Made by a program: the position numbers and the translations under genes. From the NCBI RefSeq assembly GCF_036507355.1, contig NZ_AP027877.1: DNA of 64,000 bases, one strand, 5' to 3'. The first letter of the stretch is position 1. Every line of letters starts with the position of its first letter. Below are positions 13,574 through 47,393 of this stretch, in pieces. The stretch is from Escherichia coli (GTDB taxonomy: Bacteria > Pseudomonadota > Gammaproteobacteria > Enterobacterales > Enterobacteriaceae). The notes under the pieces were generated by a model. That model was given only the letters and a program-made list of their open reading frames with translations, was not told the DNA's origin and searched no databases.

Positions 13574-13665
13574 CGTTTAATTGTTTTTTTTAATAGCGGG
13601 AATAAGGGGCAGAGAAAAGAGTATTTCGGCGACTAACAAAAAATGGCTGTTTGTGAAAAAAATTC

Positions 13666-13692
13666 TAAAGGTTGTTTTACGACAGACGATAA
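13666..13692 (+). promoter_or_regulatory. Sigma-28 (FliA) class 3 promoter of fliC
   Basis: TAAAGGTT-N11-GACGATAA about 75 bp upstream of the fliC ATG. Confidence 0.75.
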
Positions 13693-13768
13693 CAGGGTTG
13701 ACGGCGATTGAGCCGACGGGTGGAAACCCAATACGTAATCAACGACTTGCAATATAGGATAACGAATC

Positions 13769-15436
13769 ATGGCACAAGTCATTAATACCAACAGCCTCTC
13801 GCTGATCACTCAAAATAATATCAACAAGAACCAGTCTGCGCTGTCGAGTTCTATCGAGCGTCTGTCTTCTGGCTTGCGTATTAACAGCGCGAAGGATGAC
13901 GCCGCAGGTCAGGCGATTGCTAACCGTTTTACTTCTAACATTAAAGGCCTGACTCAGGCTGCACGTAACGCCAACGACGGTATTTCTGTTGCACAGACCA
14001 CTGAAGGCGCGCTGTCTGAAATCAACAACAACTTACAGCGTATCCGTGAACTGACGGTTCAGGCTTCTACCGGGACTAACTCCGATTCGGATCTGGACTC
14101 CATTCAGGACGAAATCAAATCTCGTCTGGACGAAATTGACCGCGTATCCGGTCAAACCCAGTTCAACGGTGTGAACGTACTGGCGAAAGACGGTTCGATG
14201 AAAATTCAGGTTGGTGCGAATGACGGCCAGACTATCACTATTGATCTGAAGAAAATTGACTCTGATACGCTGGGTTTGAGTGGATTTAATGTGAATGGTG
14301 GCGGGGCTGTGGCTAATACTGCAGCGACTAAAGATGATTTGGTCGCTGCATCAGTTTCAGCTGCGGTAGGTAATGAATACACTGTCTCTGCTGGCCTGTC
14401 GAAATCAACTGCTGCTGATGTTATTGCTAGTCTCACAGATGGTGCGACAGTAACTGCGGCTGGTGTAAGCAATGGTTTTGCTGCAGGGGCAACTGGAGAT
14501 GCTTATAAATTCAATCAAGCAAACAACACTTTTACTTACAATACCACCTCCACAGCGGCAGAACTCCAATCTTACCTCACGCCTAAGGCGGGGGATACCG
14601 CAACTTTCTCCGTTAAAATTGGTGGCACCAAGCAGGATGTTGTTCTGGCTAGTGATGGCAAAATCACAGCAAAAGACGGGTCTAAACTTTATATTGACAC
14701 CACAGGGAATTTAACCCAAAACGGTGGTGGTACTTTAGAAGAAGCTACCCTCAATGGCTTAGCTTTCAACCACTCTGGTCCAGCCGCTGCTGTACAATCT
14801 ACTATTACTACTGCGGATGGAACTTCAATAGTTCTAGCAGGTTCTGGCGACTTTGGAACAACAAAAACTGCTGGGGCTATTAATGTCACAGGAGCAGTGA
14901 TCAGTGCTGATGCACTTCTTTCCGCCAGTAAAGCGACTGGGTTTACTTCTGGCACTTATACCGTAGGTACAGATGGAGTTGTTAAATCTGGTGGCAATGA
15001 CGTTTATAACAAAGCTGACGGGACGGGATTAACTACTGACAATACCACAAAATATTATTTACAAGATGACGGGTCTGTAACTAATGGTTCTGGTAAAGCT
15101 GTGTATGCTGATGCAACAGGAAAACTAACTACTGACGCTGAAACTAAAGCCGAAACCACCGCCGATCCCCTGAAAGCTCTGGACGAAGCGATCAGCTCCA
15201 TCGACAAATTCCGTTCTTCCCTCGGTGCGGTGCAAAACCGTCTGGATTCCGCAGTCACCAACCTGAACAACACCACTACCAACCTGTCTGAAGCGCAGTC
15301 CCGTATTCAGGACGCTGACTATGCGACCGAAGTATCCAACATGTCGAAAGCGCAGATTATCCAGCAGGCCGGTAACTCCGTGCTCGCAAAAGCCAACCAG
15401 GTACCGCAGCAGGTTCTGTCTCTGCTGCAGGGTTAA
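13769..15436 (+). CDS. fliC: Flagellin FliC (H antigen), 555 aa
   Basis: Conserved flagellin N- and C-terminal domains flanking a Thr/Ala/Gly-rich variable central region. Confidence 0.95.
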
Positions 15437-15479
15437 TCGTCGTAAACTGATTAACTGAGACTGACGGCAACGCCAAATT

Positions 15480-15579
<100 letters not shown>

Positions 15580-15610
15580 ACATGAAGCGCAATTTGTCAG
15601 CAACGTGCTT

Positions 15611-15633
15611 CCCCGCCACCGGCGGGGTTTTTT
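15611..15633 (+). terminator. Rho-independent terminator after fliC
   Basis: CCCCGCCACCGGCGGGG hairpin followed by a T-run. Confidence 0.7.
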
Positions 15634-15755
15634 CTGCATGGAATTTACCGGTAACCCCCAAATAACCCCTCATTTCACCCACTAATCGTCCGATTAAAAA
15701 CCCTGCAGAAACGGATAATCATGCCGATAACTCATATAACGCAGGGCTGTTTATC

Positions 15756-16475
15756 GTGAATTCACTCTATACCGCTGAAGGTGTAATGGATAAACACTCG
15801 CTGTGGCAGCGTTATGTCCCGCTGGTGCGTCACGAAGCATTGCGCCTGCAGGTTCGACTGCCCGCGAGCGTGGAACTTGACGATCTGCTACAGGCGGGCG
15901 GCATTGGGTTACTTAATGCCGTCGAACGCTATGACGCCCTACAAGGAACGGCATTTACAACTTACGCAGTGCAGCGTATCCGTGGCGCTATGCTGGATGA
16001 ACTTCGCAGCCGTGACTGGGTGCCGCGCAGCGTGCGACGCAACGCGCGTGAAGTGGCACAGGCAATAGGGCAACTGGAGCAGGAACTTGGCCGCAACGCC
16101 ACGGAAACTGAGGTAGCGGAACGTTTAGGGATCGATATTGCCGATTATCGCCAAATGTTGCTCGACACCAATAACAGCCAGCTCTTCTCCTACGATGAGT
16201 GGCGCGAAGAGCACGGCGATAGCATCGAACTGGTTACTGATGTTCATCAGCGAGAAAACCCGCTACAACAACTGCTGGACAGTAATCTGCGCCAGCGGGT
16301 GATGGAAGCCATCGAAACGCTGCCGGAGCGCGAAAAACTGGTATTAACCCTCTATTACCAGGAAGAGCTGAATCTCAAAGAGATTGGCGCGGTGCTGGAG
16401 GTCGGGGAATCGCGGGTCAGTCAGTTACACAGCCAGGCCATTAAACGGTTACGCACTAAACTGGGTAAGTTATAA
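15756..16475 (+). CDS. fliA: Flagellar sigma factor sigma-28 FliA (GTG start)
   Basis: 239-aa ORF recognised as FliA (NSLYTAEGVMDKHSLWQRYVPLV...). Confidence 0.93.
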   Translation: MNSLYTAEGVMDKHSLWQRYVPLVRHEALRLQVRLPASVELDDLLQAGGIGLLNAVERYDALQGTAFTTYAVQRIRGAMLDELRSRDWVPRSVRRNAREVAQAIGQLEQELGRNATETEVAERLGIDIADYRQMLLDTNNSQLFSYDEWREEHGDSIELVTDVHQRENPLQQLLDSNLRQRVMEAIETLPEREKLVLTLYYQEELNLKEIGAVLEVGESRVSQLHSQAIKRLRTKLGKL

Positions 16476-16520
16476 CGTCAGTAAATGCCGCACTTTAACT
16501 TTGACTACCAGGAGTTCTTA

Positions 16521-17072
16521 ATGATGGTGCAGCACCTGAAAAGACGGCCATTAAGCCGCTATCTTAAAGACTTTAAACACAGCCAGACCCATTGCGCGCA
16601 TTGCCGTAAATTACTCGATCGCATTACCTTAGTTCGCGACGGCAAAATAGTGAATAAAATCGAGATTTCCCGCCTGGACACGCTGCTTGATGAAAATGGC
16701 TGGCAAACGGAACAAAAATCATGGGCGGCATTGTGCCGATTTTGCGGTGATTTACACTGCAAAACGCAGAGTGATTTTTTCGATATTATCGGCTTTAAGC
16801 AATTTCTTTTTGAGCAAACTGAAATGAGCCCAGGTACGGTGCGTGAATATGTCGTTCGTCTGCGCCGTTTGGGGAATCATCTACACGAGCAAAATATTTC
16901 CCTCGATCAGCTGCAGGACGGTTTCCTTGATGGAATCCTCGCCCCGTGGCTGCCCACCACCAGCACCAACAATTACCGCATCGCATTACGGAAGTATCAA
17001 CACTATCAGCGCCAAACCTGTACCGGACTTGTGCAGAAATCCTCCAGCCTGCCTGCTTCTGATATATATTAA
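16521..17072 (+). CDS. fliZ: Regulator FliZ
   Basis: Product starts MMVQHLKRRPLSRYLKDF after AGGAG; the listed ORF carries 12 extra N-terminal codons. Confidence 0.88.
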   Translation: MMVQHLKRRPLSRYLKDFKHSQTHCAHCRKLLDRITLVRDGKIVNKIEISRLDTLLDENGWQTEQKSWAALCRFCGDLHCKTQSDFFDIIGFKQFLFEQTEMSPGTVREYVVRLRRLGNHLHEQNISLDQLQDGFLDGILAPWLPTTSTNNYRIALRKYQHYQRQTCTGLVQKSSSLPASDIY

Positions 17073-17159
17073 ATAAGAATAAGATGTAGCGGAGTTGTTT
17101 TTGTGTTTACAAACAATGGCTCTACACTGCAAACAGACATAACAACATTCGGGGTGAAT

Positions 17160-19051
<1,892 letters not shown>

Positions 19052-19065
19052 CTCCGGGAACGCTC

Positions 19066-19734
19066 ATGCAAGAAAGTATACAACTGGTTATTGATTCCTT
19101 GCCGTTCCTGCTGAAAGGGGCTGGGTATACGCTGCAACTCAGTATCGGCGGCATGTTTTTTGGCTTACTGCTCGGGTTTATTCTCGCGCTGATGCGCCTG
19201 TCGCCAATCTGGCCCGTGCGCTGGCTGGCGCGTTTTTATATCTCTATTTTTCGTGGTACGCCGCTCATCGCACAACTGTTTATGATCTATTACGGCCTGC
19301 CGCAGTTTGGTATCGAATTAGATCCCATTCCGTCAGCAATGATTGGTCTGTCGCTCAACACTGCCGCCTATGCTGCCGAAACGCTTCGCGCCGCCATTTC
19401 TTCTATTGATAAAGGTCAGTGGGAAGCAGCTGCCAGTATTGGTATGACGCCATGGCAGACTATGCGTCGCGCGATTTTGCCACAGGCGGCGCGGGTGGCG
19501 TTGCCGCCGCTGTCAAACAGCTTTATCAGTCTGGTAAAAGATACGTCGCTGGCCGCGACAATCCAGGTGCCGGAGCTGTTCCGTCAGGCGCAGTTGATTA
19601 CCTCGCGCACGCTGGAAGTGTTCACCATGTACCTGGCGGCTTCGCTCATCTACTGGATCATGGCGACAGTGTTATCGACGTTGCAGAACCATTTTGAGAA
19701 TCAACTTAATCGCCAGGAGAGAGAACCAAAATGA
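19066..19734 (+). CDS. tcyL: Cystine ABC transporter permease TcyL (YecS)
   Basis: 222-aa polar amino-acid ABC permease. Confidence 0.9.
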   Translation: MQESIQLVIDSLPFLLKGAGYTLQLSIGGMFFGLLLGFILALMRLSPIWPVRWLARFYISIFRGTPLIAQLFMIYYGLPQFGIELDPIPSAMIGLSLNTAAYAAETLRAAISSIDKGQWEAAASIGMTPWQTMRRAILPQAARVALPPLSNSFISLVKDTSLAATIQVPELFRQAQLITSRTLEVFTMYLAASLIYWIMATVLSTLQNHFENQLNRQEREPK

Positions 19735-20483
19735 GTGCCATTGAAGTTAAGAACCTGGTGAAAAAATTCCACGGTCAGACGGTGCTGCACGGTATCGACC
19801 TTGAGGTAAAGCCTGGCGAAGTGGTGGCAATTATCGGTCCGAGTGGTTCCGGCAAAACCACGTTGCTACGCAGCATAAATCTGCTGGAACAACCCGAAGC
19901 GGGAACGATCACCGTTGGCGATATCACTATTGATACTGCACGTTCATTAAGTCAGCAAAAATCGCTGATTCGCCAGTTGCGTCAGCACGTCGGGTTTGTC
20001 TTCCAGAACTTTAATTTGTTTCCGCATCGTACGGTGCTGGAGAACATTATTGAAGGGCCGGTGATCGTCAAAGGCGAACCAAAAGAAGAGGCTACGGCGC
20101 GCGCTCGCGAGCTACTGGCAAAAGTTGGGCTGGCCGGTAAAGAAACCAGCTATCCACGTCGTTTGTCTGGCGGTCAACAGCAGCGTGTTGCGATTGCGCG
20201 TGCGCTGGCAATGCGTCCTGAGGTGATTTTGTTTGACGAGCCAACGTCAGCGCTGGATCCAGAGCTGGTGGGCGAAGTCCTGAACACCATCCGTCAGCTG
20301 GCGCAGGAAAAGCGCACGATGGTGATTGTGACACACGAAATGAGCTTTGCCCGGGATGTTGCGGACCGGGCGATCTTTATGGACCAGGGGCGGATAGTCG
20401 AGCAGGGGGCCGCAAAAGCGTTATTTGCCGATCCCAAGCAGCCTCGCACCCGCCAGTTCCTCGAGAAGTTTCTGCTGCAATAA
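19731..20483 (+). CDS. tcyN: Cystine ABC transporter ATP-binding protein TcyN (YecC)
   Basis: Walker A GPSGSGKTT, signature LSGGQQQR, Walker B ILFDEPTSALD; 4-nt overlap with tcyL. Confidence 0.92.
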   Translation: MSAIEVKNLVKKFHGQTVLHGIDLEVKPGEVVAIIGPSGSGKTTLLRSINLLEQPEAGTITVGDITIDTARSLSQQKSLIRQLRQHVGFVFQNFNLFPHRTVLENIIEGPVIVKGEPKEEATARARELLAKVGLAGKETSYPRRLSGGQQQRVAIARALAMRPEVILFDEPTSALDPELVGEVLNTIRQLAQEKRTMVIVTHEMSFARDVADRAIFMDQGRIVEQGAAKALFADPKQPRTRQFLEKFLLQ

Positions 20484-20712
20484 TAAGAAAAAATCAGCCC
20501 CGACGATTCACCTGTCGGGGCGGGACGCCATTTCAAGCCTGATAAAACTGCTTAACAAATCAGCATAACTCATTAATAACATAAGAGAATGCGATGGCTT
20601 GCAAAAGTAATTCATTGCCTGAATAATATAAATTATATATAAATCTTATTTATGTGATAGTTTGAATTATCATTATAAATGATACTCACTCTCAGGGGCG
20701 TTGCGGTTTACT

Positions 20713-21435
20713 ATGCAGGATACGGATTTTTTCAGCTGGCGTCGCACGATGCTGTTGCGTTTTCAGAGGATGGAGACCGCAGAAGAGGTCTACCATGAAA
20801 TTGAGCTTCAGGCTCAGCAGCTGGAGTACGATTACTATTCGTTATGTGTCCGCCACCCGGTACCATTCACTCGACCTAAAGTGGCTTTCTACACCAATTA
20901 CCCTGAGGCGTGGGTTAGTTATTATCAGGCAAAAAACTTTCTCGCAATTGATCCGGTGCTGAACCCTGAAAACTTTAGTCAGGGCCATCTAATGTGGAAT
21001 GATGACTTATTCAACGAAGCACAGCCGTTATGGGAAGCCGCGCGCGCACATGGTTTACGCCGCGGTGTCACTCAGTATTTAATGCTGCCAAACCGGGCGC
21101 TGGGCTTTTTGTCCTTTTCCCGTTGCAGCGCGCGCGAAATACCCATTCTTAGTGATGAACTGCAATTAAAAATGCAGTTACTGGTGCGCGAAAGTCTGAT
21201 GGCTCTGATGCGTTTAAATGATGAAATAGTGATGACGCCAGAGATGAATTTCAGCAAGCGCGAAAAAGAAATTCTGAGGTGGACGGCGGAAGGGAAGACA
21301 TCAGCAGAGATAGCGATGATTTTGTCAATCTCTGAGAATACGGTCAATTTCCACCAGAAAAACATGCAGAAAAAAATTAATGCACCAAATAAGACCCAGG
21401 TTGCCTGTTACGCGGCCGCTACTGGCTTAATTTGA
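20713..21435 (+). CDS. sdiA: LuxR-family quorum-sensing regulator SdiA
   Basis: Product begins MQDTDFFSWRRTMLLRFQ; C-terminal LuxR HTH. Confidence 0.9.
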   Translation: MQDTDFFSWRRTMLLRFQRMETAEEVYHEIELQAQQLEYDYYSLCVRHPVPFTRPKVAFYTNYPEAWVSYYQAKNFLAIDPVLNPENFSQGHLMWNDDLFNEAQPLWEAARAHGLRRGVTQYLMLPNRALGFLSFSRCSAREIPILSDELQLKMQLLVRESLMALMRLNDEIVMTPEMNFSKREKEILRWTAEGKTSAEIAMILSISENTVNFHQKNMQKKINAPNKTQVACYAAATGLI

Positions 21436-21463
21436 TCTCTTTTCTGTCCTGCGTGCCAGATGC

Positions 21464-21500
21464 AAAAACCGGCTGAAAGGCACGCTATCAGCCGGTTTTA
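21464..21500. terminator. Bidirectional terminator between convergent sdiA and yecF
   Basis: AAAAA-CCGGCTGA-loop-TCAGCCGG-TTTT hairpin flanked by A- and T-runs. Confidence 0.6.
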
Positions 21501-21502
21501 TA

Positions 21503-21727
21503 TTACTGACGGTAGGCTTGTTTAATTTGCTTAACCGTTTTGGAAAATACTGCAGCCTGGGTTTCGTCTTCGATCAGCGCAAGCTGTTTTTCCATCTTTA
21601 ACATCACGCGGCCCGCGTCAGCTTGTCCCATCGCCTGCAGCATCAGCGTCAGCATCGCTTTCAGGCAGGAGACTTCATTTGCCAGTTCTTGATTATTCTC
21701 GGCAGTAGAAAAATCAGGCGTACTCAT
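21503..21727 (-). CDS. yecF: Small protein YecF
   Basis: 74-aa ORF in the conserved position between sdiA and uvrY. Confidence 0.75.
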
Positions 21728-22185
21728 TTATTTTCCTCGTCATGTTGCAATGAAAATTTGCGGTGAAAAATGTTAAGGCGGCGGAGTATACCATAAGCTT
21801 TGCTAAAAATAGCAGTGGTTGTTTTTTGAGCGTGATATCGGCAGTGCTATAAAATACGTTAATATAATGACCAATAAATATTTTTATCATGAATGTTTTT
21901 TGCCCGTATTGTTCGGGTTAATTAATGTTACATATTCAGCGGGCTGATTTTCATTTTTGCTGAATAAAGTCAATTTTTGTCACATTTCATCGCAGGGCTT
22001 ACTGTGAAACGATCCCGGAAGCCGTTGGTGACGGGCGTGACCATAACTGTGGACAATCGAATTTACAAAAACGAGAGAAAAATCGAATACCCACCATTTT
22101 TAACGTTTCAAAGTTGCAATAAAAACCGCTAATATACGAATGACTAACTATCAGTAGCGTTATCCCTATTTCTGGAGATATTCCT

Positions 22186-22842
22186 TTGATCAACGTTCTA
22201 CTTGTTGATGACCACGAACTGGTGCGCGCAGGGATACGACGCATTCTGGAAGATATAAAGGGTATAAAAGTCGTCGGTGAGGCATCGTGCGGTGAAGACG
22301 CCGTTAAGTGGTGCCGGGCAAATGCCGTTGACGTGGTGCTAATGGACATGAGTATGCCGGGCATTGGCGGTCTTGAGGCGACGCGTAAAATCGCGCGTTC
22401 CACAGCTGATGTCAAAATCATCATGCTTACCGTCCATACAGAAAACCCTTTACCAGCGAAAGTCATGCAGGCCGGTGCTGCGGGCTACCTCAGCAAAGGC
22501 GCGGCACCGCAGGAAGTCGTGAGTGCGATCCGTTCTGTCTATTCAGGGCAGCGTTACATTGCTTCTGACATCGCTCAACAAATGGCGTTAAGCCAGATCG
22601 AACCAGAAAAAACAGAAAGCCCATTTGCCAGTTTGTCTGAACGTGAATTGCAGATTATGCTGATGATCACCAAGGGCCAGAAGGTCAATGAGATCTCAGA
22701 ACAGCTCAATCTCAGTCCGAAAACGGTGAACAGCTACCGCTATCGTATGTTCAGTAAACTAAACATTCATGGCGATGTTGAGCTGACTCACCTGGCAATT
22801 CGCCATGGTCTGTGTAATGCGGAGACATTATCAAGTCAGTGA
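22186..22842 (+). CDS. uvrY: Response regulator UvrY (BarA/UvrY two-component system), TTG start
   Basis: Receiver domain (LLVDDH...) plus LuxR-type HTH; stop overlaps the uvrC start. Confidence 0.92.
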
Positions 22843-24671
22843 GTGATCAGTTTGACGCAAAAGCGTTTTTAAAAACCGTAACCAGCCAGCCAGGCGTTTA
22901 TCGCATGTACGATGCTGGTGGTACGGTTATCTATGTCGGCAAAGCGAAAGACCTGAAAAAACGGCTTTCCAGCTATTTCCGTAGCAACCTCGCTTCGCGC
23001 AAAACCGAAGCGCTGGTCGCCCAGATCCAGCAAATTGATGTAACGGTTACTCATACAGAAACCGAAGCGCTGTTGCTGGAACACAACTACATCAAACTCT
23101 ATCAGCCGCGTTACAACGTTTTGCTACGCGATGATAAATCATATCCTTTTATCTTCCTGAGTGGCGATACCCACCCGCGTCTGGCGATGCATCGTGGTGC
23201 GAAGCATGCCAAAGGTGAATATTTCGGCCCGTTCCCGAATGGCTATGCCGTACGTGAAACACTGGCGCTACTGCAAAAGATTTTCCCCATTCGCCAGTGC
23301 GAAAATAGTGTTTATCGCAATCGCTCGCGTCCGTGTCTGCAATATCAGATAGGGCGCTGTCTGGGACCGTGCGTTGAAGGACTGGTGAGTGAAGAAGAAT
23401 ACGCTCAGCAGGTCGAGTATGTGCGCCTGTTTTTGTCTGGCAAAGATGATCAGGTGCTTACGCAACTGATTAGCCGTATGGAAACTGCCAGTCAGAATCT
23501 GGAGTTTGAAGAAGCGGCACGTATTCGCGACCAAATTCAGGCGGTGCGACGCGTCACCGAAAAACAGTTTGTGTCCAATACCGGCGACGACCTTGACGTT
23601 ATTGGTGTGGCGTTCGATGCGGGCATGGCTTGTGTCCACGTATTGTTCATTCGTCAGGGCAAAGTGCTCGGCAGCCGCAGCTATTTCCCGAAAGTGCCTG
23701 GCGGTACGGAACTGAACGAGGTGGTGGAAACCTTCGTAGGACAGTTCTATTTACAAGGCAGCCAGATGCGCACCTTACCGGGTGAGATCCTGCTCGATTT
23801 TAATCTTAGCGATAAAACGCTGCTCGCCGATTCCCTTTCAGAACTGGCGGGACGCAAGATTAATGTTCAAACCAAACCTCGTGGCGATAGGGCGCGTTAC
23901 CTGAAACTCGCGCGCACCAATGCGGCGACGGCCTTAACCAGCAAACTTTCGCAGCAATCTACCGTTCACCAGCGGCTTACAGCACTTGCCAGCGTGTTGA
24001 AATTGCCGGAAGTGAAGCGGATGGAGTGCTTTGACATCAGCCATACCATGGGTGAACAAACCGTCGCTTCCTGTGTGGTGTTTGATGCTAACGGCCCGCT
24101 GCGTGCGGAGTATCGGCGCTATAACATTACTGGCATCACGCCGGGCGATGATTATGCGGCGATGAATCAGGTGCTGCGTCGGCGTTATGGTAAAGCCATC
24201 GACGACAGTAAGATCCCGGATGTGATACTTATCGACGGCGGCAAAGGCCAGCTTGCGCAGGCGAAAAATGTCTTCGCCGAACTGGATGTCTCATGGGATA
24301 AAAATCATCCGCTGCTACTTGGCGTTGCCAAAGGAGCAGATCGTAAGGCTGGGCTGGAAACGCTGTTCTTTGAGCCGGAAGGTGAGGGATTCAGTTTGCC
24401 GCCAGATTCTCCCGCGCTGCATGTTATCCAGCATATTCGCGATGAATCACACGATCACGCGATTGGCGGGCACCGTAAAAAACGGGCGAAGGTCAAAAAT
24501 ACCAGTTCCCTGGAAACCATTGAAGGCGTCGGGCCAAAACGCCGGCAAATGTTGTTGAAATATATGGGCGGTTTGCAAGGTTTACGTAACGCCAGCGTCG
24601 AGGAAATTGCAAAAGTGCCGGGTATTTCGCAAGGTCTGGCAGAAAAGATCTTCTGGTCGTTGAAACATTGA
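22839..24671 (+). CDS. uvrC: Excinuclease ABC subunit C UvrC
   Basis: 610 aa with GIY-YIG N-terminus ([24 protein letters not shown]). Confidence 0.95.
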
Positions 24672-24727
24672 TGTCTCTGTAGCAACATAGGGGTAATCTT
24701 ACTGACAACAGATAGTTACCCGTCATT

Positions 24728-25276
24728 ATGCAATTTAATATCCCTACGTTGCTTACACTGTTCCGTGTCATCCTTATCCCATTCTTTGTATTGGTCTTTT
24801 ATCTGCCTGTCACCTGGTCGCCGTTTGCCGCCGCGCTCATTTTCTGCGTCGCGGCGGTGACTGACTGGTTCGATGGTTTTCTGGCACGCCGCTGGAACCA
24901 GAGTACCCGGTTTGGTGCTTTCCTTGACCCTGTAGCAGATAAAGTTCTCGTGGCTATCGCCATGGTGCTGGTAACCGAGCATTACCACAGCTGGTGGGTG
25001 ACCTTACCGGCGGCAACGATGATCGCCCGTGAAATTATTATTTCTGCGCTACGCGAATGGATGGCGGAGTTGGGTAAACGCAGTAGCGTGGCTGTCTCCT
25101 GGATTGGGAAAGTGAAAACCACTGCCCAGATGGTGGCGCTGGCATGGCTGCTGTGGCGTCCGAACATTTGGGTTGAGTACGCCGGTATTGCACTTTTCTT
25201 TGTGGCTGCGGTACTGACTCTGTGGTCAATGTTGCAATATTTGAGCGCTGCGCGTGCAGATTTGCTTGATCAGTGA
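24728..25276 (+). CDS. pgsA: CDP-diacylglycerol--glycerol-3-phosphate 3-phosphatidyltransferase PgsA
   Basis: 182-aa ORF recognised as PgsA. Confidence 0.92.
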
Positions 25277-25326
25277 TCGTTTCGGCGCAATTTTCAGCAA
25301 ACGATCAAAAGTGGTGAAAAATATCG

Positions 25327-25354
25327 TTGACTCATCGCGCCAGGTAAGTAGAAT
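25327..25354 (+). promoter_or_regulatory. Putative sigma-70 promoter of the glyW-cysT-leuZ tRNA operon
   Basis: TTGACT-N16-TAGAAT followed by a GC-rich discriminator, about 70 bp upstream of tRNA-Gly. Confidence 0.5.
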
Positions 25355-25427
25355 GCAACGCATCGAACGGCGGCACTGATTGCCAGACGATAATAAAATC
25401 AAGTGATTAACTGATTGCTTGATGAAT

Positions 25428-25503
<76 letters not shown>

Positions 25504-25557
25504 GTTTAAAAGACATCGGCCTCAAGCGGATGTCTGGCTGAAAGGCCTGAAGAATTT

Positions 25558-25631
25558 GGCGCGTTAACAAAGCGGTTATGTAGCGGATTGCAAATCCGTC
25601 TAGTCCGGTTCGACTCCGGAACGCGCCTCCA
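25558..25631 (+). tRNA. cysT: tRNA-Cys (anticodon GCA)
   Basis: GGCGCGTTAACAAAGCGGTTATGTAGCGGATTGCAAATCCG...CGCGCCTCCA. Confidence 0.95.
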
Positions 25632-25643
25632 ATTTCTTCCCGA

Positions 25644-25730
25644 GCCCGGATGGTGGAATCGGTAGACACAAGGGATTTAAAATCCCTCGGCGTTCGCGCT
25701 GTGCGGGTTCAAGTCCCGCTCCGGGTACCA
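25644..25730 (+). tRNA. leuZ: tRNA-Leu (anticodon UAA), integration target of the island
   Basis: GCCCGGATGGTGGAATCGGTAGACACAAGGGATTTAAAATCCCTCGGCG...CCGGGTACCA, long variable arm. Confidence 0.95.
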
Positions 25731-31244: not shown

Positions 31245-31435
31245 GTTGGAGTCATTACCTGTTTTTGCTGCATATTTGGCCATGCACTTTTGCCATCAAG
31301 TCAGAGAGACAGGGGCACCGTAAGAGACGAAGGTTGCTGCCTGTGATGAGAGGTTATCAGCAATTACAATGGTCACTAATATTTACATAATGTCGGAGAA
31401 CATCATTTTAGTTGAAATAATATAAAGGCGGTTCT

Positions 31436-31762
31436 ATGTATTTACATATCAGAAAGTATCAACTCGTAAATGCGAGATGGCGTGATATCATTGATTTGAC
31501 GGATTATGAAGAAACAATCAAGCAGGTTGTGAGTACATTATTTGGAAATGATTTTATTGAGGTCAGAGTTGAAACGCGTTGTTTTATTCTGACAGTAAAC
31601 AGTACAAGCAGTAAAATACCACACGGCATACTGGTGAATATGGGGAAAAGGCTGGCGGCGAATCTCCAGAGTATCACCTGTCATGCCATGCGGATCTATC
31701 ATGTAAATGGCCATCCTGACGCGCGGCAGTTATTTCACTGTTTTGATGCCGATTGCCTGTGA
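31436..31762 (+). CDS. Hypothetical protein (108 aa)
   Basis: ORF between IS1 and the convergent polymerase gene; no family recognised. Confidence 0.4.
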   Translation: MYLHIRKYQLVNARWRDIIDLTDYEETIKQVVSTLFGNDFIEVRVETRCFILTVNSTSSKIPHGILVNMGKRLAANLQSITCHAMRIYHVNGHPDARQLFHCFDADCL

Positions 31763-31810
31763 TTAAGCCCCCAACTTCTGTTAAAGGAGTTGGGGGAGAT
31801 TTAACGGTTA

Positions 31811-34474
31811 TCAGACTGGAAGACAGAATGTCGGATATTTACGGGCTATGATATCCATCAGTGACTTCATTCGCGGTGTTACAGAACTAAATTTCATTTG
31901 GGGTATTTTTGCTCTTACCGCATTTTTTACATCAGTCACCGTTACTGAATAGCCTTCTGACGTCAGCCATTCAGCAACCTCTTTACAGGAATAACTTTTT
32001 TTATCTTTCAGCATCAGCCCCCATTGGCACTGAGTCAGCGCCCGGAGAAATAGTCTGACTAAAATATCATCACTACGTTTGCTTCCGACTTTTAGTTTCA
32101 TATCAGAAAACACCGTCCGGCAATAGAGAAAATCACACCAGTCATCCCAGTCAGCCAGGGTCTTCAGTGTATGCGTTTGCCGCCAGTCGTCGAAAAGGGA
32201 GCGTTGCTGCAGAGCCTCTTCCATATTATCCCACGGGCGGGAAAACATCAGTAGATGCCCTTCATTCATGGCGGGCCGTACGGGCTGGCGTTTGAAATCG
32301 AATTCCAGATTAAGACGGATATCCTGTTCCCGGGATACCAGATCGCTTTCCGAGAGCCACATCTCACGCGTTGATATCAACGTACTTCGGGATAACGTCT
32401 GACCGGGTAAACGATTAAGGTAAAGATCTACCATATAGTCGTTATAGTCACTGCGTGGAATATCGGCAGGAGGTTTGACGCCAGCCCTGGCATGAACAAC
32501 AGGTTTTCCCTGAATCGCTTTATAGGTTAACTGCCCCCGGGTTTTCATGGCGATAAGCTGGCTGACCTCATGCTTACATGTCAACATTGATGAACCCGGA
32601 TCAACAATATCGCACAGCGACTGGAAGCGGGAAGACAGTGGACCGCTCATGTTTATCTTGTCAAGTGGGCAATTTGTCAAAAAACCATCGGTTGTGACGC
32701 TGACAACCGATGAATCAGAAGGCAAAGCATTCATGAGTTCCCCGACAACGGCGCGGATAAATCCCGTCACATGCGCAGCAAAGAATGGCTGAGTAACCGA
32801 TGATGGTGGGAGGGATCTGTTTAATCCACGGGCAGTATCAAAGGCGGTTTTGGCGCGAAGGCCCTGAGCAAGTTTGCCATAAAGCGAGTTGCCAATTTCT
32901 TTCCAGAATTTCTCCTCCAAAGAACCCTTAATATGGCGATTACGGTTCTCACGGACCTGTTGAACAAAGGGAAGAAACACCGATGTTGATTCGCTGTTAT
33001 GTGGGGAGGTGTCACAGATCCAGGGGACGATGATCCCATTATGGATCGTCATCTCTGCCCCGAGCGACAGAGCAAGTTCGATTTCAGGTGCCGTTGCCCA
33101 TGATTCGCCACTTAATGGAAAGAATAACCCATATTGATCGGTCCGAACCGGCAGGCTGGGATAGGGAACTGATTCCGGGAACCGAAATGTGACAAGCGCA
33201 AATCCCATCACATGCCCACAGTAATCGTCCGGATTTTTACTGAGGCGGATGTTTCCGTAATCGGGTATGAGGATATCTAATAGCCCGGTGGTATACGCTC
33301 CAGCCAGATCGTAGTCATACCAGTGATCAGACGGTGTAACCCCCATCATAAAACACTCATTGCGTCCGCCGTGGTAACAGTTGATCGGGAACGTTTCAAA
33401 CAACTCTCTTGAAGGAACACTGGCGGGGTTTTTAATCGTCCGGAATGCCTGTTTCTCCGTGAGCCAGAGTTCACGGGTTTTAATGTGTGTCCCAAGGCAG
33501 ACTTCAGGAGACATATTGTTTTCTTTAAGTGTTTTGGTGAACCGTGAAACTGCCATCGCCCCGATGGTGGCGGGGACACGATCAATCATCAGCTCCCGGG
33601 CGCAAAAATTGCGAACCTGTAAAGCATAACGAACCGCAATCTCGGCATCCCGCAGAGCATAGGCTTCAAACCCTGCTCTGTCGCCCAGAAGATATTCACG
33701 CATATTGGTTATGGAATAAGGTGCAGGAATGGTGAGTTTGGGAAGACCCAGTAATTCACCACATTCAGCCAGACCCATACCCCCGGGAGTGATAAGCAGT
33801 GTATCGATGAAAGCTACGTTACTGCAACGCGGAGGGGAAGTTCGTTTGTCAAACATTATCTGTTCAGTCTTTACGCGACGTTCCTGCTGTTCATCAAAAT
33901 CGATACCGTAACGATTTTTGAAGCTGCTGACAGTACCGCGTATTCCTTTCAGAAGAATTTTGTAGTCTGACCAGAAATTGGCAAAGGAGGCGATATCCGC
34001 ACGAATGAAATGCGCATATATATTAATAATACCGGGCCATTTTGTAATCACACCCGTTTCAAGAAGCGGTGTAATCGTTTGACAGAGAAATTCCTTAAAA
34101 GACAGTCGGGATTTTTTCTGTGAGTCAGGTGGATAGATAATGTTCGATATACCAGTGTTATCGGGTAAGACGACATAACTCTGATATGACAGAATATCAT
34201 TCTGTTGTGTTTCAGGATTGAAAACATATTCGGTATCAAAACCGATATGGAGTGTCAGGTCACTTGAAATAACAGATACTTTTTTTGATGCAGGTGGTAT
34301 CACAGGATAATCATCAAGCGTTTTAGGTCTTTTAAGATTGAGCGCTGGCTCTGAAGTCACGGACTGATACCCCGAGGCGGCAGCGAGGATATCCTGCAAA
34401 TTATGGCTCATAGTTAACTCCGAAAAAATGCCGGGAGCTGTGTCCCGGCATAAAGAATCAAGATTTAATAACAT
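31811..34474 (-). CDS. Family-B DNA polymerase of the primer-independent PolB (piPolB) type
   Basis: Exo I FDTEY, motif B KEIGNSLYG (KxxxNSxYG), motif C-like VTTDG, and KTRG in AMKTRGQLTY in place of the KxY motif; 887 aa. Confidence 0.85.
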   Translation of the reverse strand: MLLNLDSLCRDTAPGIFSELTMSHNLQDILAAASGYQSVTSEPALNLKRPKTLDDYPVIPPASKKVSVISSDLTLHIGFDTEYVFNPETQQNDILSYQSYVVLPDNTGISNIIYPPDSQKKSRLSFKEFLCQTITPLLETGVITKWPGIINIYAHFIRADIASFANFWSDYKILLKGIRGTVSSFKNRYGIDFDEQQERRVKTEQIMFDKRTSPPRCSNVAFIDTLLITPGGMGLAECGELLGLPKLTIPAPYSITNMREYLLGDRAGFEAYALRDAEIAVRYALQVRNFCARELMIDRVPATIGAMAVSRFTKTLKENNMSPEVCLGTHIKTRELWLTEKQAFRTIKNPASVPSRELFETFPINCYHGGRNECFMMGVTPSDHWYDYDLAGAYTTGLLDILIPDYGNIRLSKNPDDYCGHVMGFALVTFRFPESVPYPSLPVRTDQYGLFFPLSGESWATAPEIELALSLGAEMTIHNGIIVPWICDTSPHNSESTSVFLPFVQQVRENRNRHIKGSLEEKFWKEIGNSLYGKLAQGLRAKTAFDTARGLNRSLPPSSVTQPFFAAHVTGFIRAVVGELMNALPSDSSVVSVTTDGFLTNCPLDKINMSGPLSSRFQSLCDIVDPGSSMLTCKHEVSQLIAMKTRGQLTYKAIQGKPVVHARAGVKPPADIPRSDYNDYMVDLYLNRLPGQTLSRSTLISTREMWLSESDLVSREQDIRLNLEFDFKRQPVRPAMNEGHLLMFSRPWDNMEEALQQRSLFDDWRQTHTLKTLADWDDWCDFLYCRTVFSDMKLKVGSKRSDDILVRLFLRALTQCQWGLMLKDKKSYSCKEVAEWLTSEGYSVTVTDVKNAVRAKIPQMKFSSVTPRMKSLMDIIARKYPTFCLPV

Positions 34475-35096
34475 TTACTACAGATTTGAAAATATCGGTT
34501 TTGCGTGATTCATCATCTACATGGATAAAGGAAACGAGTTTCCTGCCTGCTTTAATCAGGATACCGCGTTGCGTCTTTTCCACAGACGGGGTAACGTGTG
34601 CAGATAACAGACAATGTTCATGTAAATGAAGAAACTTTTTTGAGGCGTAGCCGCCATGTAATCGGGCTTGAATGTCAAGATACATATCATCAAGAGAACC
34701 GGGTTCTCCTGATTCACTCAATACCGGATAACCCTTCTTATCAAAGAGGTTAAGGATAGATTTACTATCATGTTCGAACAGGGTAACACCGTAAATGTAT
34801 TTCATTCGAAAGGTGAGGGAATCGGTGGTGTAGACCTCCTCCTGACGATTGAAATTTTTGAGACGCCTGGCTAATTCATTAAAAACAGCACGAGCAGTAG
34901 CCGTGTCCTGCAGGGTGTAGGTATAAAGTACGAAGCCATCTGTGCCGATGAGCTTTACTAAGTTGTCCATAATCGTGATAGCGAGAACTAATGCAAAGGA
35001 TAGATATTTTTCATCGTTGTCTACAGCTGTGTTTGCTGCTTCAGGAAGAATGTTCAGTGCATTATTAGCATTATTTGCTGTGTTCTTAGTAACCAT
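34458..35096 (-). CDS. Hypothetical protein (212 aa) co-transcribed upstream of the polymerase
   Basis: Overlaps the polymerase start by 17 nt and the AlpA-like gene stop by 11 nt. Confidence 0.55.
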   Translation of the reverse strand: MVTKNTANNANNALNILPEAANTAVDNDEKYLSFALVLAITIMDNLVKLIGTDGFVLYTYTLQDTATARAVFNELARRLKNFNRQEEVYTTDSLTFRMKYIYGVTLFEHDSKSILNLFDKKGYPVLSESGEPGSLDDMYLDIQARLHGGYASKKFLHLHEHCLLSAHVTPSVEKTQRGILIKAGRKLVSFIHVDDESRKTDIFKSVVNVIKS

Positions 35097-35286
35097 TTAT
35101 ATCACCTTTAAGTTTGTTTTGACGATGTGCATTTTCCCACTCAACAATATCATCAAGAGAGAATCGTATAGCCCGCCCAATTCTGATGAAGGGCGGGAGT
35201 TTTCCGGGGTTGCGCGATATATCTGACGCAACCGTGGATGCAGAAAGATTAAATCTTTCTGCGAACTGCTTAATGGTTAAATACAT
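35086..35286 (-). CDS. AlpA-family phage-type regulator / excisionase-like HTH protein
   Basis: 66 aa, MYLTIKQFAERFNLSASTVASDISRNPGKLPPFIRIGRAIRFSLDDIVEW, typical AlpA/Xis HTH_17. Confidence 0.75.
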   Translation of the reverse strand: MYLTIKQFAERFNLSASTVASDISRNPGKLPPFIRIGRAIRFSLDDIVEWENAHRQNKLKGDINGY

Positions 35287-35436
35287 AAACCTCCGGTTTC
35301 AGAGAATAAGAAGCCACGCGGATTTAATATCAATCCACATTCTGTGATGACTTAATGCAGGGCCCTGCAGAAGCATGCAATGACAATACCGTCCTTAAAC
35401 GAGTGTTGCATCAATCACGAATCACAGATCATAGGT

Positions 35437-36564
35437 TCATTTTGTGTCATAACTTTCTATGACCTGAGAAACCACTGCGTGTGATGTCGCTGCATTGTGA
35501 AAAGCGTAGCGACGGGTCGCCGTGAGTGAATGGTGATTTAGCAGATGGGAAGCGATTGCAATATCCCCGGTCGCCTGTAGTACCCGGGTGGCAAAGGTAC
35601 GGCGCAGGTCATGCATCCGCAGGTTATCAATGTTGGCATCCCGACAAATACGGGCAAAGGTTGCACGCGGATATGCCAGAGGGCGGGCATTGTCGGTTAG
35701 TTGTGGAAAAATGTAAGTTTTGCTGAGCATCAGGTCCTGCTGGCACTGGACAACTGCAATGGCTGGAAGTGCAAGTGGGCAGGTGAAAGGGTGTCCGGAC
35801 TTTGTATCAGGCAGTATGAGTTGATGCATATCCGGGTGCCAGTACTCCCATTTCAGGGTACATACCTCACCAATACGCATCCCCGTATAAAGAGCAAGCA
35901 ATATAGAATCAGCTGCCGGTGTTTGCAGCGCTGTTGCTGCGTTAATAAAGCGCGGGATTTCTGTCGCTGACAGTGTGCGATAGCGAATGTTATTTTCTTT
36001 CAGATAGCGGACATGTGACATCGGGGAATGTGTGATCCATCCAGCACGTACTGCCAGAGAGCATATTTTGGACAATATTGCGAGGATACGGTTTACTGTT
36101 GACGGACGTAATTTTTCCCGTAAGCCAGCAGCATATTGTTCTAGTTCTCCTGCCGTGATGTCGCGAAGTTGCCGCTTGCCCCAGAACGGGCGAACGTAGA
36201 GGTTGAGTTTTGACAACTCTGACTGAGGACTCTTTTTATACAACTGCAAATCCGGTAGCCACAGGTCATTGATGGCCTGTTCCACAGTGAATCGACGGGA
36301 CTGAACAGCAAGGCGATTTTTATCGGCAAGCAGGTTCATCACATGCTGACGGGCATCCTCAATGCAGAGATGAGGGAATTCACCCAGTGTTTCATATATA
36401 CGTTGATTTTTGATGGTGGCGCGAAAGGCCAGCGTGATCCGTTTTGGATATACCAGTGCACGCAGGTTTTGGCACTGAATATCACGGTATTCCTGACAAC
36501 CCGTGAGGGGATGTGGAAGTTGGTGAATTGATTTGTTGCTGAAACGCAGATCCAGAATAGGCAT
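35437..36564 (-). CDS. Second tyrosine recombinase / integrase
   Basis: Catalytic HDLRRTFATRV (HxxR) and TRRYAF (Tyr), plus core-binding-like N-terminal region. Confidence 0.85.
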   Translation of the reverse strand: MPILDLRFSNKSIHQLPHPLTGCQEYRDIQCQNLRALVYPKRITLAFRATIKNQRIYETLGEFPHLCIEDARQHVMNLLADKNRLAVQSRRFTVEQAINDLWLPDLQLYKKSPQSELSKLNLYVRPFWGKRQLRDITAGELEQYAAGLREKLRPSTVNRILAILSKICSLAVRAGWITHSPMSHVRYLKENNIRYRTLSATEIPRFINAATALQTPAADSILLALYTGMRIGEVCTLKWEYWHPDMHQLILPDTKSGHPFTCPLALPAIAVVQCQQDLMLSKTYIFPQLTDNARPLAYPRATFARICRDANIDNLRMHDLRRTFATRVLQATGDIAIASHLLNHHSLTATRRYAFHNAATSHAVVSQVIESYDTK

Positions 36565-36706
36565 CGTATTTCTCCTGTAAATGACACTGGAAAAATACGA
36601 TGTGAGGTTATAGTCTGCCAGTTACAGCTTTCACAGTTCATCAGGTGAAAAATGCTGATTCGGATATAATGGCAACACAATTCCATGTCGCCATTATATT
36701 AAGAAA

Positions 36707-37837
36707 CTACAGTTTCATGATCTTGTTCGCTATTTTTTCGAAGTAAACCTCATTCTTAAGAAGAGTGATATTGTTAGTTTGAACACCCAGACCACTGGAG
36801 GTTGACTGGAAGTTGAGTGAACCACTTATCACGGTGGACTTTCCTGATAAAAATGAAATCAACTCCTTGGAAGATGGTGCCCACTCAGGGTTTAAGAGTA
36901 ATGCAATGTAGATATATGTCTTACGAAGCAATTGTTCGATATCTTTTTTATACCCCGTAGTGTTTTGCTTACCTTTAATGCAAATTGATTTGATTATGAA
37001 CTCATCAGGGCTGGTTAAAGGCGTTTTAAACTTATTCAGTGATCCATCGTTATGAATGACTTCATAAGGCAGCATAGATAAAATGATCAATGCAATCATT
37101 TTAGGATGATAAAGGTAGTTATCACGAATGATTTTTCCTGCCTTCATTGTATTGAGTGTTGTTTGAATAAATACAAAAAGATATTCAGAGCAAAAGTAAC
37201 AAAACACAAGCCAGGATAGGTCAATGGCTGGAATGTTAATATCCTTAGGTAGTTTGTTTAGCCAGTATTCAGACTTCAAAAAGGTCCTGATTTCAACAGT
37301 ATATTCATGCATTTTTGCGCTGAAATCAAGCATTGCTACTTGACCTGATTGTTCCGTAACTGTGTGGTCTATAAATGTTAGTGTATTGCACATTTTATCC
37401 AGCGTGTTTTGAAAACAAGAAAGGAGTTCGGCATTATTATTACCATTAACCGCAGATGAAAGTTCAGTTGCAATAAATGCATCCAGTAGCATACAGATTT
37501 TTTTCGGAATGACATTTTTACGGGATTGCTGTGAATAGAAATATACTGCCAGTAAATTAAAGGCAGTGCACTCCTTTTTTAACCATTGTTCGAGCACTGG
37601 GACGTGCTGAAAAAAATTGATATGCTTAGCAGTAGATGCTGATGGAGATAGTACATGAAGAATATCTACAGCAGGCTTCATTTGCAATATTTGATCGGAT
37701 TCGGTAGTCGTCATTAGTTCCAGTAATTGCTGTTCAGAAAATAGTTTAGACAGGTGATCAATGTCTTTTTGGTATTGGTTAAGTTTTTTTAAATTCCCCG
37801 GTACACGGGTTACATTGTTTTTCATTTTCTCGAACAT
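36707..37837 (-). CDS. Hypothetical protein (376 aa), AT-rich orphan
   Basis: Long ORF in visibly AT-rich DNA; no motif recognised. Confidence 0.55.
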   Translation of the reverse strand: MFEKMKNNVTRVPGNLKKLNQYQKDIDHLSKLFSEQQLLELMTTTESDQILQMKPAVDILHVLSPSASTAKHINFFQHVPVLEQWLKKECTAFNLLAVYFYSQQSRKNVIPKKICMLLDAFIATELSSAVNGNNNAELLSCFQNTLDKMCNTLTFIDHTVTEQSGQVAMLDFSAKMHEYTVEIRTFLKSEYWLNKLPKDINIPAIDLSWLVFCYFCSEYLFVFIQTTLNTMKAGKIIRDNYLYHPKMIALIILSMLPYEVIHNDGSLNKFKTPLTSPDEFIIKSICIKGKQNTTGYKKDIEQLLRKTYIYIALLLNPEWAPSSKELISFLSGKSTVISGSLNFQSTSSGLGVQTNNITLLKNEVYFEKIANKIMKL

Positions 37838-38239
37838 AATTTTATCCTCGTTTGAATTAATACACTGATTTAAAAAGTAGCATGTCGTGTTAGCGAGGTA
37901 ATCCTAAAACGTGAATGGGATCAGGGGCAAGCTTGAATCTGCGTAAGGATATGGCTTAAATTTAATGGTGTAATTAGTGGATTAGAGGCTTATAGCTATT
38001 TAAATACAATAAGTTATGACGGTGTGTGGCGGGTGTAAATCGGTTAGTTTTTATGGTTAAAATATGAGCGCTATGAGGTTTCAGAGATGGTGGTGTTTAA
38101 ATTACATAAAACCAAGGCCTGATAATCAGTATCAATACCGGAACGATGTCATATGATTAACACTGTCTATGGCATTGATAATGATCTATGCAAGGCTGAA
38201 ATTAGCTCTGCTTCACGATGATATAGTGTTCTATAAAGA

Positions 38240-39475
38240 TTAAAAGGAAATAAACAGAGCCTTTCGCCGATGAATCAATGTGCTGATTTCCCTCAAATCA
38301 GCCTCAATACTACCAACATCACCAAAGACTTCACCTCTAATCTCACTTCGATTTTTCATGAAATTGGTGCTTAATAAGCTTTCTTTTTTTAATGCCATTA
38401 ATTTTGGTTTTATATCGTTATAGAAATGCTTACGGCTTACCCTGATGCTATGAATCGAGTAGTAAACTGTTTTATACATCAAAAATATAAGTAACTGGCC
38501 GAGAAGATATTCTTTTTCAATGTATTTATATTGAGAGGATTTTTCGCGTTTCGCCAGGTAGAAAACATGAGGTGCGATGATGGTGGGGATAAAATCCAGT
38601 GCTGGAGAGGTTTTGGTTTTTTCTGTTTCTCTTCCGGATTGAAGATGTTGAAGTACAGAGTATACAATGCTTAAAATTATGGCGTTACTTATATTATTAA
38701 TTGCAGTTGGGTAAATATGCAGATTGCTTATCAATTCTGAAAGGCAAAGTAAAACACCAGTGATGTTGGGTTTTCTGCCGGAGATTGTGGTGCTGTTGAA
38801 AATGTGACGATTCTTACGACTTATATTGACAAGTTTATGAGTGCAGAACTCTATATGTTCGACGATTTTATCTTGACTATTTTTAATGTATTTTGAAATG
38901 TTAGTGATCCGGCCATTCAACGTTAGTTCATCAAGCAATATATCATTTTTAATATTGCGAATTTCATCGCAATGTTCACATTGAGAAACTATCTCATGTA
39001 ATACATAACTCGAAGTATTGCGTGACGATGCTGATATGTAATCTAAAATGGAATGCTCGACTTTGATTTTTTGTTTGTATTTTTTAATGCACTGTTTGAT
39101 TGTTTTTTGTAGAGTATTTGAGATGTGTTTTTTATATTCTTTTAGAAAATCTTGCTCTAAAAAGAGTGAGGAGAAGATCAACTGCTGGCGAGATAATTTA
39201 ATCTCAGGCTTGATCAATTTAATCCGAAAAACTCTTCCCTCCAACTCATAGCTGAACATGGAAGATAAGTCATAGTGGGGTGATAAATGTTCGAGTAACG
39301 ACATTCGTGTATTCATTAGCCGCTTGAATTTATGGTCAGCATACATAAGTGTTTTTTTTATTTGCTCATCATAAAGTGGGCCGATAGCGCAGTTGGCAAT
39401 ACTCATTCTATCCGGAGACCTCCAGTCAGCAGGGGAATCACATTGACGGTCATCATTACTATCAAAGGGCATCAA
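38240..39475 (-). CDS. Hypothetical protein (411 aa), AT-rich orphan
   Basis: Long ORF in visibly AT-rich DNA; no motif recognised. Confidence 0.55.
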   Translation of the reverse strand: MMPFDSNDDRQCDSPADWRSPDRMSIANCAIGPLYDEQIKKTLMYADHKFKRLMNTRMSLLEHLSPHYDLSSMFSYELEGRVFRIKLIKPEIKLSRQQLIFSSLFLEQDFLKEYKKHISNTLQKTIKQCIKKYKQKIKVEHSILDYISASSRNTSSYVLHEIVSQCEHCDEIRNIKNDILLDELTLNGRITNISKYIKNSQDKIVEHIEFCTHKLVNISRKNRHIFNSTTISGRKPNITGVLLCLSELISNLHIYPTAINNISNAIILSIVYSVLQHLQSGRETEKTKTSPALDFIPTIIAPHVFYLAKREKSSQYKYIEKEYLLGQLLIFLMYKTVYYSIHSIRVSRKHFYNDIKPKLMALKKESLLSTNFMKNRSEIRGEVFGDVGSIEADLREISTLIHRRKALFISF

Positions 39476-46200: not shown

Positions 46201-46583
46201 TGAAACAGTACCTTTTGTTCCGTGAATTTGAAGAACAGGTTGAAGCCCGTAAGCTCAGCGATATCCCGGATGCACTGGCGGTAAACAAGCATGCTCAGGC
46301 GTATTACGGTGTATTTAAAAAAGAGCTACCTGAGGTTTTTGCGGTAAACGACGTTCAGGTGCAGGATAAGTGGACCAAGCTGGCTTTTGAAGTGGACAAC
46401 ATTATCGTCAAAGCGGTGGCAGAAAACTCCCTGAACCCCCAGGACATTGAGAAAGTCGTTAAGACAAGTCTGCTACCACTGCTGTTTACGGCCTGCCGGG
46501 AAATTGGTGCCGGAATGAATCAGGTTAACCGTATTGTGGAAACCATCATCCAGATACTGCGCGTTGGTTTGATGAAATCATGA
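43296..46583 (+). CDS. hsdR: Type I restriction endonuclease subunit HsdR
   Basis: 1095 aa; Walker A TGSGKSYT and DEAH-like box DEGHRS. Confidence 0.92.
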   Translation: MMNQTYTPKFQEEYSAKIPALTLLTSLGWTFLSPKQIMDYRGYKQDEVVLRPVLREELSKRSFMAGGKTCQLSEKALDNLISQVCSPALNEGLLKANERMYNHLLYGIAVTEFVDGKKVNPTIALIDWEHPESNQFHFTEEFTVLRSGGVETRRPDIVCFVNGIPLAVIEAKSPAGHGKKGPTIDEGISQSIRNQLNDEIPQLFAYSQILLSINGHDGRYGTCHTPMKFWAAWREEDITYAQMYALRNHKLSTEQIHALFDDRPSVDLKWYQQLIDGGELAVSGQDKLLISLLSPERLLEMTRFFTLFDKKTGKIVARYQQVFGIKRLLERISTRRPDGGREGGVIWHTTGSGKSYTMVFLSKALILHDSLKQCRIVVVTDRVDLEGQLSGTFVSGGELAGKDDKAKAMATSGQKLAQQIGSGKERIIFTLIQKFNSATKLPECVNTSPDIIVLIDEGHRSQGGENHVRMKLALPNAAFVAFTGTPLLKEDKTTNKFGPIVHAYTMQRAVEDKAVTPLLYEERIPDLEVNDRAIDAWFDRITDGLSEAQKADLKRKYARKGEVYSADDRIRLIALDIATHFSKNIDEGLKGQLACDSKISAIKYKKYLDEAGLFESAVVISPPDTREGNTEVDESKLPEVTKWWKDNVGTQDESVYTRNIISRFDTDEKLKLLIVVDKLLTGFDEPKNTVLYIDKPLKSHNLIQAIARVNRLHPLKKFGLLIDYRGILAELDTTIGKYQDLASRTQGGYDIKDIDGLYSAMSSEYKRLPHLYNQLWAIFAGVKNKNDTEQLRAVLVPKMEERDGEMVDIHQKTRDDFFEALTAFAGCLKVALQSATFFTDKSFTEQDRNLYKETVKQMSSLRQWAMQVSGEQVNYDDYAEQVKKLLDKHVTGVEVREPDGVYEVGKMGKSEKPEEWDNNKTRNETDIIKTRVTKMIEQELRDDPYAQEAFSKLLRMAIEEAEKLFDHPLKQYLLFREFEEQVEARKLSDIPDALAVNKHAQAYYGVFKKELPEVFAVNDVQVQDKWTKLAFEVDNIIVKAVAENSLNPQDIEKVVKTSLLPLLFTACREIGAGMNQVNRIVETIIQILRVGLMKS

Positions 46584-47335: not shown

Positions 47336-47393
47336 CTTATCAATATGAGTTCTTAAGGGTTTGGTCAGTCTCGTTAATGTAGGGAGTATAATA

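Follow-up and report, generated by a model that had tools for sequence, protein, structure and literature searches.

The fliC locus and its flanking genes

The window, by which we mean the whole 64 kb stretch of Escherichia coli DNA analysed here, carries fliC at its normal chromosomal locus between fliD and fliA, and not at a second flagellin locus of the fljB, flkA or fllA type. The gene order, with fliT, fliS and fliD on the minus strand and fliC, fliA and fliZ on the plus strand, is collinear with that of K-12 (Table 1). The coordinates and the length of the reading frame stand exactly as the sequence-only reading gave them, and its naming of the gene is borne out by protein family matches: Flagellin_N (PF00669) covers residues 5-140 of the product (E 1.4e-46), Flagellin_C (PF00700) covers residues 468-553 (E 4.7e-32), and the NCBIfam model NF005953 for FliC/FljB family flagellins matches the protein over its full length with 791 bits (cut-off 619). 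The N- and C-terminal helical domains that mark a protein as a FliC/FljB flagellin are thus both present. Between them lies a further Pfam domain, PF12445 ('FliC'), at residues 333-459 (E 8.9e-30).

Table 1. Coordinates of fliC, its regulatory elements and the neighbouring flagellar genes in the window
Feature	Position	Strand	Remarks
fliG	182-1177	-	tblastn: full length, 100% identical to K-12
fliF	1170-2828	-	tblastn: full length, 99.6% identical to K-12
fliE	3043-3357	+	tblastn: full length, 100% identical to K-12; start of the fliE-fliR region
fliT	11297-11662	-	full length, 100% identical to K-12
fliS	11662-12072	-	full length, 99.3% identical to K-12
fliD (filament cap)	12097-13503	-	divergent from fliC; full length, 99.8% identical to K-12
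Putative sigma-28 (FliA) type class 3 promoter motif, TAAAGGTT-N11-GACGATAA	13666-13692	+	77 bp upstream of the fliC ATG
fliC coding sequence, H31 genotype	13769-15436	+	ATG start, 555 aa and stop; reading frame without internal stop
fliC N-terminal conserved region, residues 1-175 (D0/D1 filament-core helices)	13769-14293	+	93.7% identity to K-12; Flagellin_N
fliC variable, surface-exposed region, residues 176-460 (H specificity)	14294-15148	+	contains PF12445; 4-36% identity to K-12
fliC C-terminal conserved region, residues 461-555 (D1/D0 helices)	15149-15433	+	Flagellin_C; 92-100% identity to K-12 from residue 476
fliC 3' UTR with REP-like repeats	15440-15633	+	equivalent of the K-12 annotated FliX sRNA region
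Intrinsic terminator: hairpin CCCCGCC-ACC-GGCGGGG (15611-15627) and T run	15611-15636	+	7 G-C pairs, 3-nt loop; conserved in K-12
fliA (sigma-28)	15756-16475	+	full length, 99.6% identical to K-12
fliZ	16521-17072	+	after fliA; full length, 98.4% identical to K-12

The protein was also described, from the sequence, as a pair of conserved ends around a Thr/Ala/Gly-rich middle, and this too is what we find. Residues 1-150 and 476-555 are 92-100% identical to K-12 FliC, and the N-terminal conserved region is invariant across the seven alleles that we aligned. Residues 176-460 consist of 16.1% Thr, 15.8% Ala and 13.7% Gly, so that these three residues make up 45.6% of the region, against some 23-24% of the termini.

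The elements that surround the gene are equally well preserved. Across the entire 64 kb, the pattern TAAAGNTT-N10-12-GNCGATAA was matched only once, at the fliC promoter, with 0.02 matches expected by chance; the fliD-fliC intergenic region that contains it is identical to that of K-12 at 263 of 265 positions, and the promoter motif itself is identical. By analogy with the K-12 promoter, this motif would be expected to function as one here. Downstream, the K-12 annotation places the ncRNA fliX immediately after fliC, and the fliC-fliA intergenic region of the window, which spans both the FliX stretch and the terminator hairpin, is identical to K-12 at 312 of 320 positions. At its gathering threshold, Rfam returned only three tRNAs from the window and no family in the fliC 3' UTR, and the FliX assignment is therefore based on the K-12 annotation together with the 97.5% identity.

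Regions of the flagellar regulon that lie outside the 64 kb window include flhDC, the flg genes, flhBAE and most of fliH-fliR. Nothing within the window speaks against fliC expression, and the gene is predicted to be expressed. Should it be, established flagellin biology indicates how its product would be used. FliA (sigma-28) would transcribe fliC from the class 3 promoter, and FliC, with FliS as its chaperone, would leave the cell by way of the flagellar type III apparatus and polymerise beneath the FliD cap. The N- and C-terminal helices (approximately residues 1-175 and 461-555) would then form the filament core and the surface recognised by TLR5, and the variable middle (approximately residues 176-460) would fold into the surface domains that are visible to antibodies and define the H type.

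Allele type, strain G4/9 and the flagellar phenotype

The allele was placed by a megablast search with fliC against 5,426 complete E. coli genomes, 5,373 of which carry the gene. One genome, that of strain G4/9, is 100% identical to the window fliC, with 0 nucleotide differences; one group of genomes lies at about 98.5%, and another, which includes strain 536, at about 96.6%. MS6192 (ST101) differs from the window by 25 nt and a single amino acid (K283E), for 98.5% nucleotide identity, and strain 536 differs by 56 nt and 7 amino acids, for 96.6% identity over 100% of the length. All three share with the window the chromosomal locus and the length of 1668 bp and 555 aa; 536 and MS6192, unlike the window, have Glu in place of Lys at residue 283. 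The serotype of E. coli 536 is O6:K15:H31 (PMC6598517), and MS6192, a member of ST101 Clade 1, was typed as H31 by its authors with SerotypeFinder and EcOH. The H31 reference strain is HW33, with sequence AF345849.1 (PMC4753304); strains 536 and MS6192 stand in for it here, and both lie well above the 85% nucleotide identity used as the threshold for in-silico H typing (10.1101/860726).

The central 861 nt was also searched alone, in sensitive mode, against the same 5,426 genomes. About 80 genomes matched, with identities that are for the most part 97% or higher, 79 of them at 95% or more and one at 90-95%, and the next classes were the ATCC 8739-like alleles at about 65% nucleotide identity and the H28 alleles at about 73% over half the length. 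No other H-type allele comes equally close to the window centre, and a clean gap in identity extends down to about 65%. Since 536 and MS6192 lie this close to the window and the next central class stands at about 65%, the comparison with these two strains assigns the allele to the H31 genotype by a wide margin. Overall, we put at roughly nine in ten the probability that the window gene is an intact structural gene for flagellin, in its normal position between fliD and fliA, carrying an H31 allele. Serologically, an antigen of this sequence would be predicted to react as H31.

This is an ordinary H31 allele that is already known from many public genomes: the exact 555-aa protein is the representative of a 214-member cluster at 90% and occurs on more than 170 public contigs (NCBI, ENA and Logan). 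As such, it reveals no new biology. The distribution of differences from MS6192 (locus L003, 3001-4668) is uneven: of the 25 changed nucleotides, 21 lie in the conserved ends, and the central stretch of about 855 nt accounts for the other 4. Such a mosaic pattern suggests that an H31 cassette may move between backgrounds, with recombination breakpoints inside the conserved ends, and recombination of this kind would fit the report that two H31 strains gave differing results in fliC-directed PCRs (PMC4753304).

The one complete genome with an identical fliC deserves closer attention. G4/9 is one of the six genotypes of the probiotic Symbioflor 2, which have been described as 'all H-' and 'nonmotile (flagella absent)' (PMC5063008; PMC5138452); a literature search for an H type assigned to G4/9 in silico yielded no more than the statement 'all H-'. 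From position 6155 to 25436 the window shows zero mismatches to G4/9, so that fliC and its flanks are identical in the two. We nevertheless reject the idea that the window is G4/9 itself: side by side the two show 33,081 mismatches, the identity is limited to 6155-25436, and, by BLAST, the IS elements to the left of that segment and the island to its right are not the same.

In the G4/9 chromosome, NZ_CP060073.1 1839129-1840461 (locus L005, 4809-6141), yedL is followed by an IS3 element and then by shiA; at the same position after yedL, K-12 has yedN, intG, fliE-fliR and about 30 kb more. The fliE-fliR region and the genes that follow are missing from G4/9, a loss of about 40 kb in K-12 terms, and the IS3 abuts shiA directly. 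We also searched with a chimeric probe composed of the H31 centre and 250-nt pieces of fliF, fliI, fliM and fliR. It matched at one place in the G4/9 chromosome, compared with five in each of the 11 other H31 genomes among the matches listed, and the fliF, fliI, fliM and fliR pieces had no match in the G4/9 chromosome. The lack of these four genes plausibly explains how G4/9 can be H- and nonmotile despite an intact H31 fliC, and the missing fliE-fliR region is the likely cause of that phenotype.

G4/9 also raises the question of whether the window fliC is similarly intact but silent, in which case the window would derive from a nonmotile (H-) strain with a cryptic H31 genotype, invisible to serotyping. 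That a strain sharing 100% of fliC and its flanks has been published as H- and nonmotile (PMC5063008), with probe matches reduced to one place from the five seen in the other H31 genomes listed, lends some substance to this scenario, as do the course of the G4/9 IS3 from yedL into shiA, the occurrence of the same IS3 in the window at 3673-5084, and a further public context (L009), which encodes the identical protein and has the deletion form. We nonetheless consider a silent gene unlikely, because the window keeps fliE, fliF and fliG intact beside the IS3, the three genes are likewise retained in 20 similar public contexts (the L008 type) that encode the identical protein, none of the flagellar genes visible in the window is shortened, and the promoter does not differ from that of K-12. 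A window lacking fliE-fliR in the manner of G4/9 is in any case rejected by the full-length presence of fliE, fliF and fliG.

At the same time, G4/9 qualifies what the allele can be used for. The sequence-only reading held that the variable region determines the H serotype and could type the strain, and proposed comparison with an H-antigen allele database; run in equivalent form, through strain 536 and MS6192, that comparison returned H31. The window fliC therefore gives the strain an H genotype and places the window beside the probiotic genotype G4/9. The typing claim holds for genotype only, since G4/9, with the identical fliC, has been published as H- and nonmotile: when serotypes are predicted in silico, the antigen can be read from an intact fliC only in a strain that has the remainder of the flagellar regulon.

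A further alternative is that the allele represents an antigenically distinguishable sub-factor, or a new type near H31, and not H31 proper. Six of the seven substitutions that separate the window from strain 536 do fall within the variable region or next to it (G178K, D244N, K283E, G286S, T396A and A447V), and the separate types H1 and H12 are themselves only 44 nt and 7 amino acids apart (PMC4753304). Set against this, the ST101 allele one amino acid away was called H31 by both standard databases, the variation accepted within H28 reaches 8% of nucleotides (PMC4753304), and there is no closer named type, the next class lying at about 65%. We judge a separate type to be very improbable, and retain H31 proper as the assignment.

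Outer domains compared with K-12 and the sheath flagellins

The sequence-only reading took the gene for a non-K-12 H-antigen allele with a central region much longer than that of K-12 FliC, which it put at about 498 aa, and it named identity of the centre to the K-12 H48 allele as the finding that would overturn this view. That size is correct, in that MG1655 fliC is 1497 bp and encodes 498 aa, and the centre proved far from identical. Over residues 176-450, identity to K-12 is 4-36% per 25-residue block, and a BLASTP comparison of the two variable regions yields no more than a local match of 101 residues (E 3e-4). The Pfam content of the middle differs as well: K-12 FliC contains Flagellin_D3 and FLIC_barrel, whereas the FliC proteins of the window and of strain 536 contain PF12445. 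As to length, the window protein is indeed longer, by 57 residues, its variable region measuring about 285 aa where that of K-12 measures about 228 aa; this is secondary, however, and the more important difference between the two proteins is one of domain make-up. The K-12 and window genes thus share locus, promoter, 3' UTR and terminator and are nearly identical in the protein termini, but their centres show essentially no relationship, either in sequence or in Pfam domain content. An H48 allele, or a mere length variant of H48, can be dismissed despite near-identity to K-12 in the fliC termini and both intergenic regions, given a centre that departs from MG1655 in sequence and in domains alike.

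A much better match for the outer region is found elsewhere in the species. In a phmmer search, the window FliC aligned over its full length to 7SQJ and 7SN7 (E ~1e-180) and to 7SN4 (E 4e-154), the first two being FliC filaments of EPEC O127:H6 and the last FliC of EHEC O157:H7 (PMC8931119). In H6 and H7 filaments, the outer domains D2-D4 dimerise or tetramerise into an outer sheath, and the K-12 outer domains are Salmonella-like and unrelated to them (PMC8931119). By BLASTP, the variable region of the window is 33.6% identical to that of EPEC H6 over all 285 aa (E 6e-22), so that BLASTP and phmmer agree on homology to the outer domains of the H6/H7 sheath class. In our seven-allele alignment, overall amino acid identity to the window FliC is 85% for the ATCC 8739-type protein, 80% for H28 and 68% for H6. 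The ATCC 8739-type (572 aa) and O145:H28 (580 aa) proteins share the architecture of the window FliC and have variable regions collinear with its own, but they are different antigen types whose centres show only the low nucleotide identities given above. EPEC H6 and EHEC H7 FliC, although alignable from end to end, are of other H types, and in the outer domains their identity to the window protein is only about one third.

Judged by these sequence comparisons, the outer region of the window flagellin is homologous to D2-D4 of the E. coli H6/H7/H28 group, and is not an elongated form of the Salmonella-like D2/D3 of K-12. Structural prediction adds little. An AlphaFold2 model of FliC built on a shallow seven-sequence alignment was of low confidence (mean pLDDT 59.7, pTM 0.40), and Foldseek searches with it placed 7SN4, 9N59 and 7SQD at the top (E 1e-30 to 3e-20), ahead of Salmonella (1e-18). 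These top matches are sheath flagellins of H7, Azotobacter and Achromobacter, but their TM-scores are no higher than 0.27-0.32. The ranking is consistent with the H6/H7 class, yet with so poor a model the fold lends it little support, and the assignment depends mainly on sequence homology. A search of the PDB by sequence found no H31 filament structure. By analogy with H6 and H7, we think it possible, at somewhat less than even odds, that the H31 flagellin builds an outer-domain sheath with a pairing geometry of its own. If it does, H31 strains would be expected to show the same changes in waveform and tumbling that have been described for H7.

Insertion sequences and a defence island in the window

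Two adjacent insertion sequences occupy positions 3673-6154, between fliE and yedL (6296-6775). The first, an IS3-family element at 3673-5084, is 99.9% identical to the G4/9 copy. The second lies in a 1070-bp segment (5085-6154) that is absent from G4/9 and from the public contexts L008 and L009, and contains an open reading frame at 5144-6145 (333 aa) in which Pfam finds HTH_38 and rve domains, as in IS30-type transposases. The frame resembled a leucine-rich-repeat gene that is annotated in relatives, a reading that we reject in favour of the IS30-type transposase. The yedN/intG interval of K-12 is reduced in the window to 319 and 148 bp.

On the far side of the flagellar genes, from about 25900 to 51704, lies an integrase-bearing island rich in restriction and defence genes, flanked by tRNA-Gly/Cys/Leu (25428-25730) on the left and by yecA (52141) on the right. 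Within it, a block at 31259-39475 is largely absent from G4/9 and contains a second integrase (35437-36564, minus strand), along with four other open reading frames, all on the minus strand, at 31811-34474 (887 aa), 34458-35096 (212 aa), 36707-37837 (376 aa) and 38240-39475 (411 aa). None of these four has a match in Pfam or PADLOC; owing to their location in a defence island, they are candidates for an undescribed system.

The remainder of the island is more readily recognised. It encodes a type I restriction-modification system (M at 39779-41302, S at 41292-42566 and R at 43296-46583), an M48 peptidase, a PDC-S26-like PD-(D/E)XK protein (49291-50418) and an Mrr-like nuclease (50523-51704). 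GmrSD, at 47361-49232, is intact in the window, whereas in G4/9 it is interrupted by IS903B; G4/9 in turn carries an additional SIR2 gene, in a stretch of about 1.8 kb before yecA that is without counterpart in the window.
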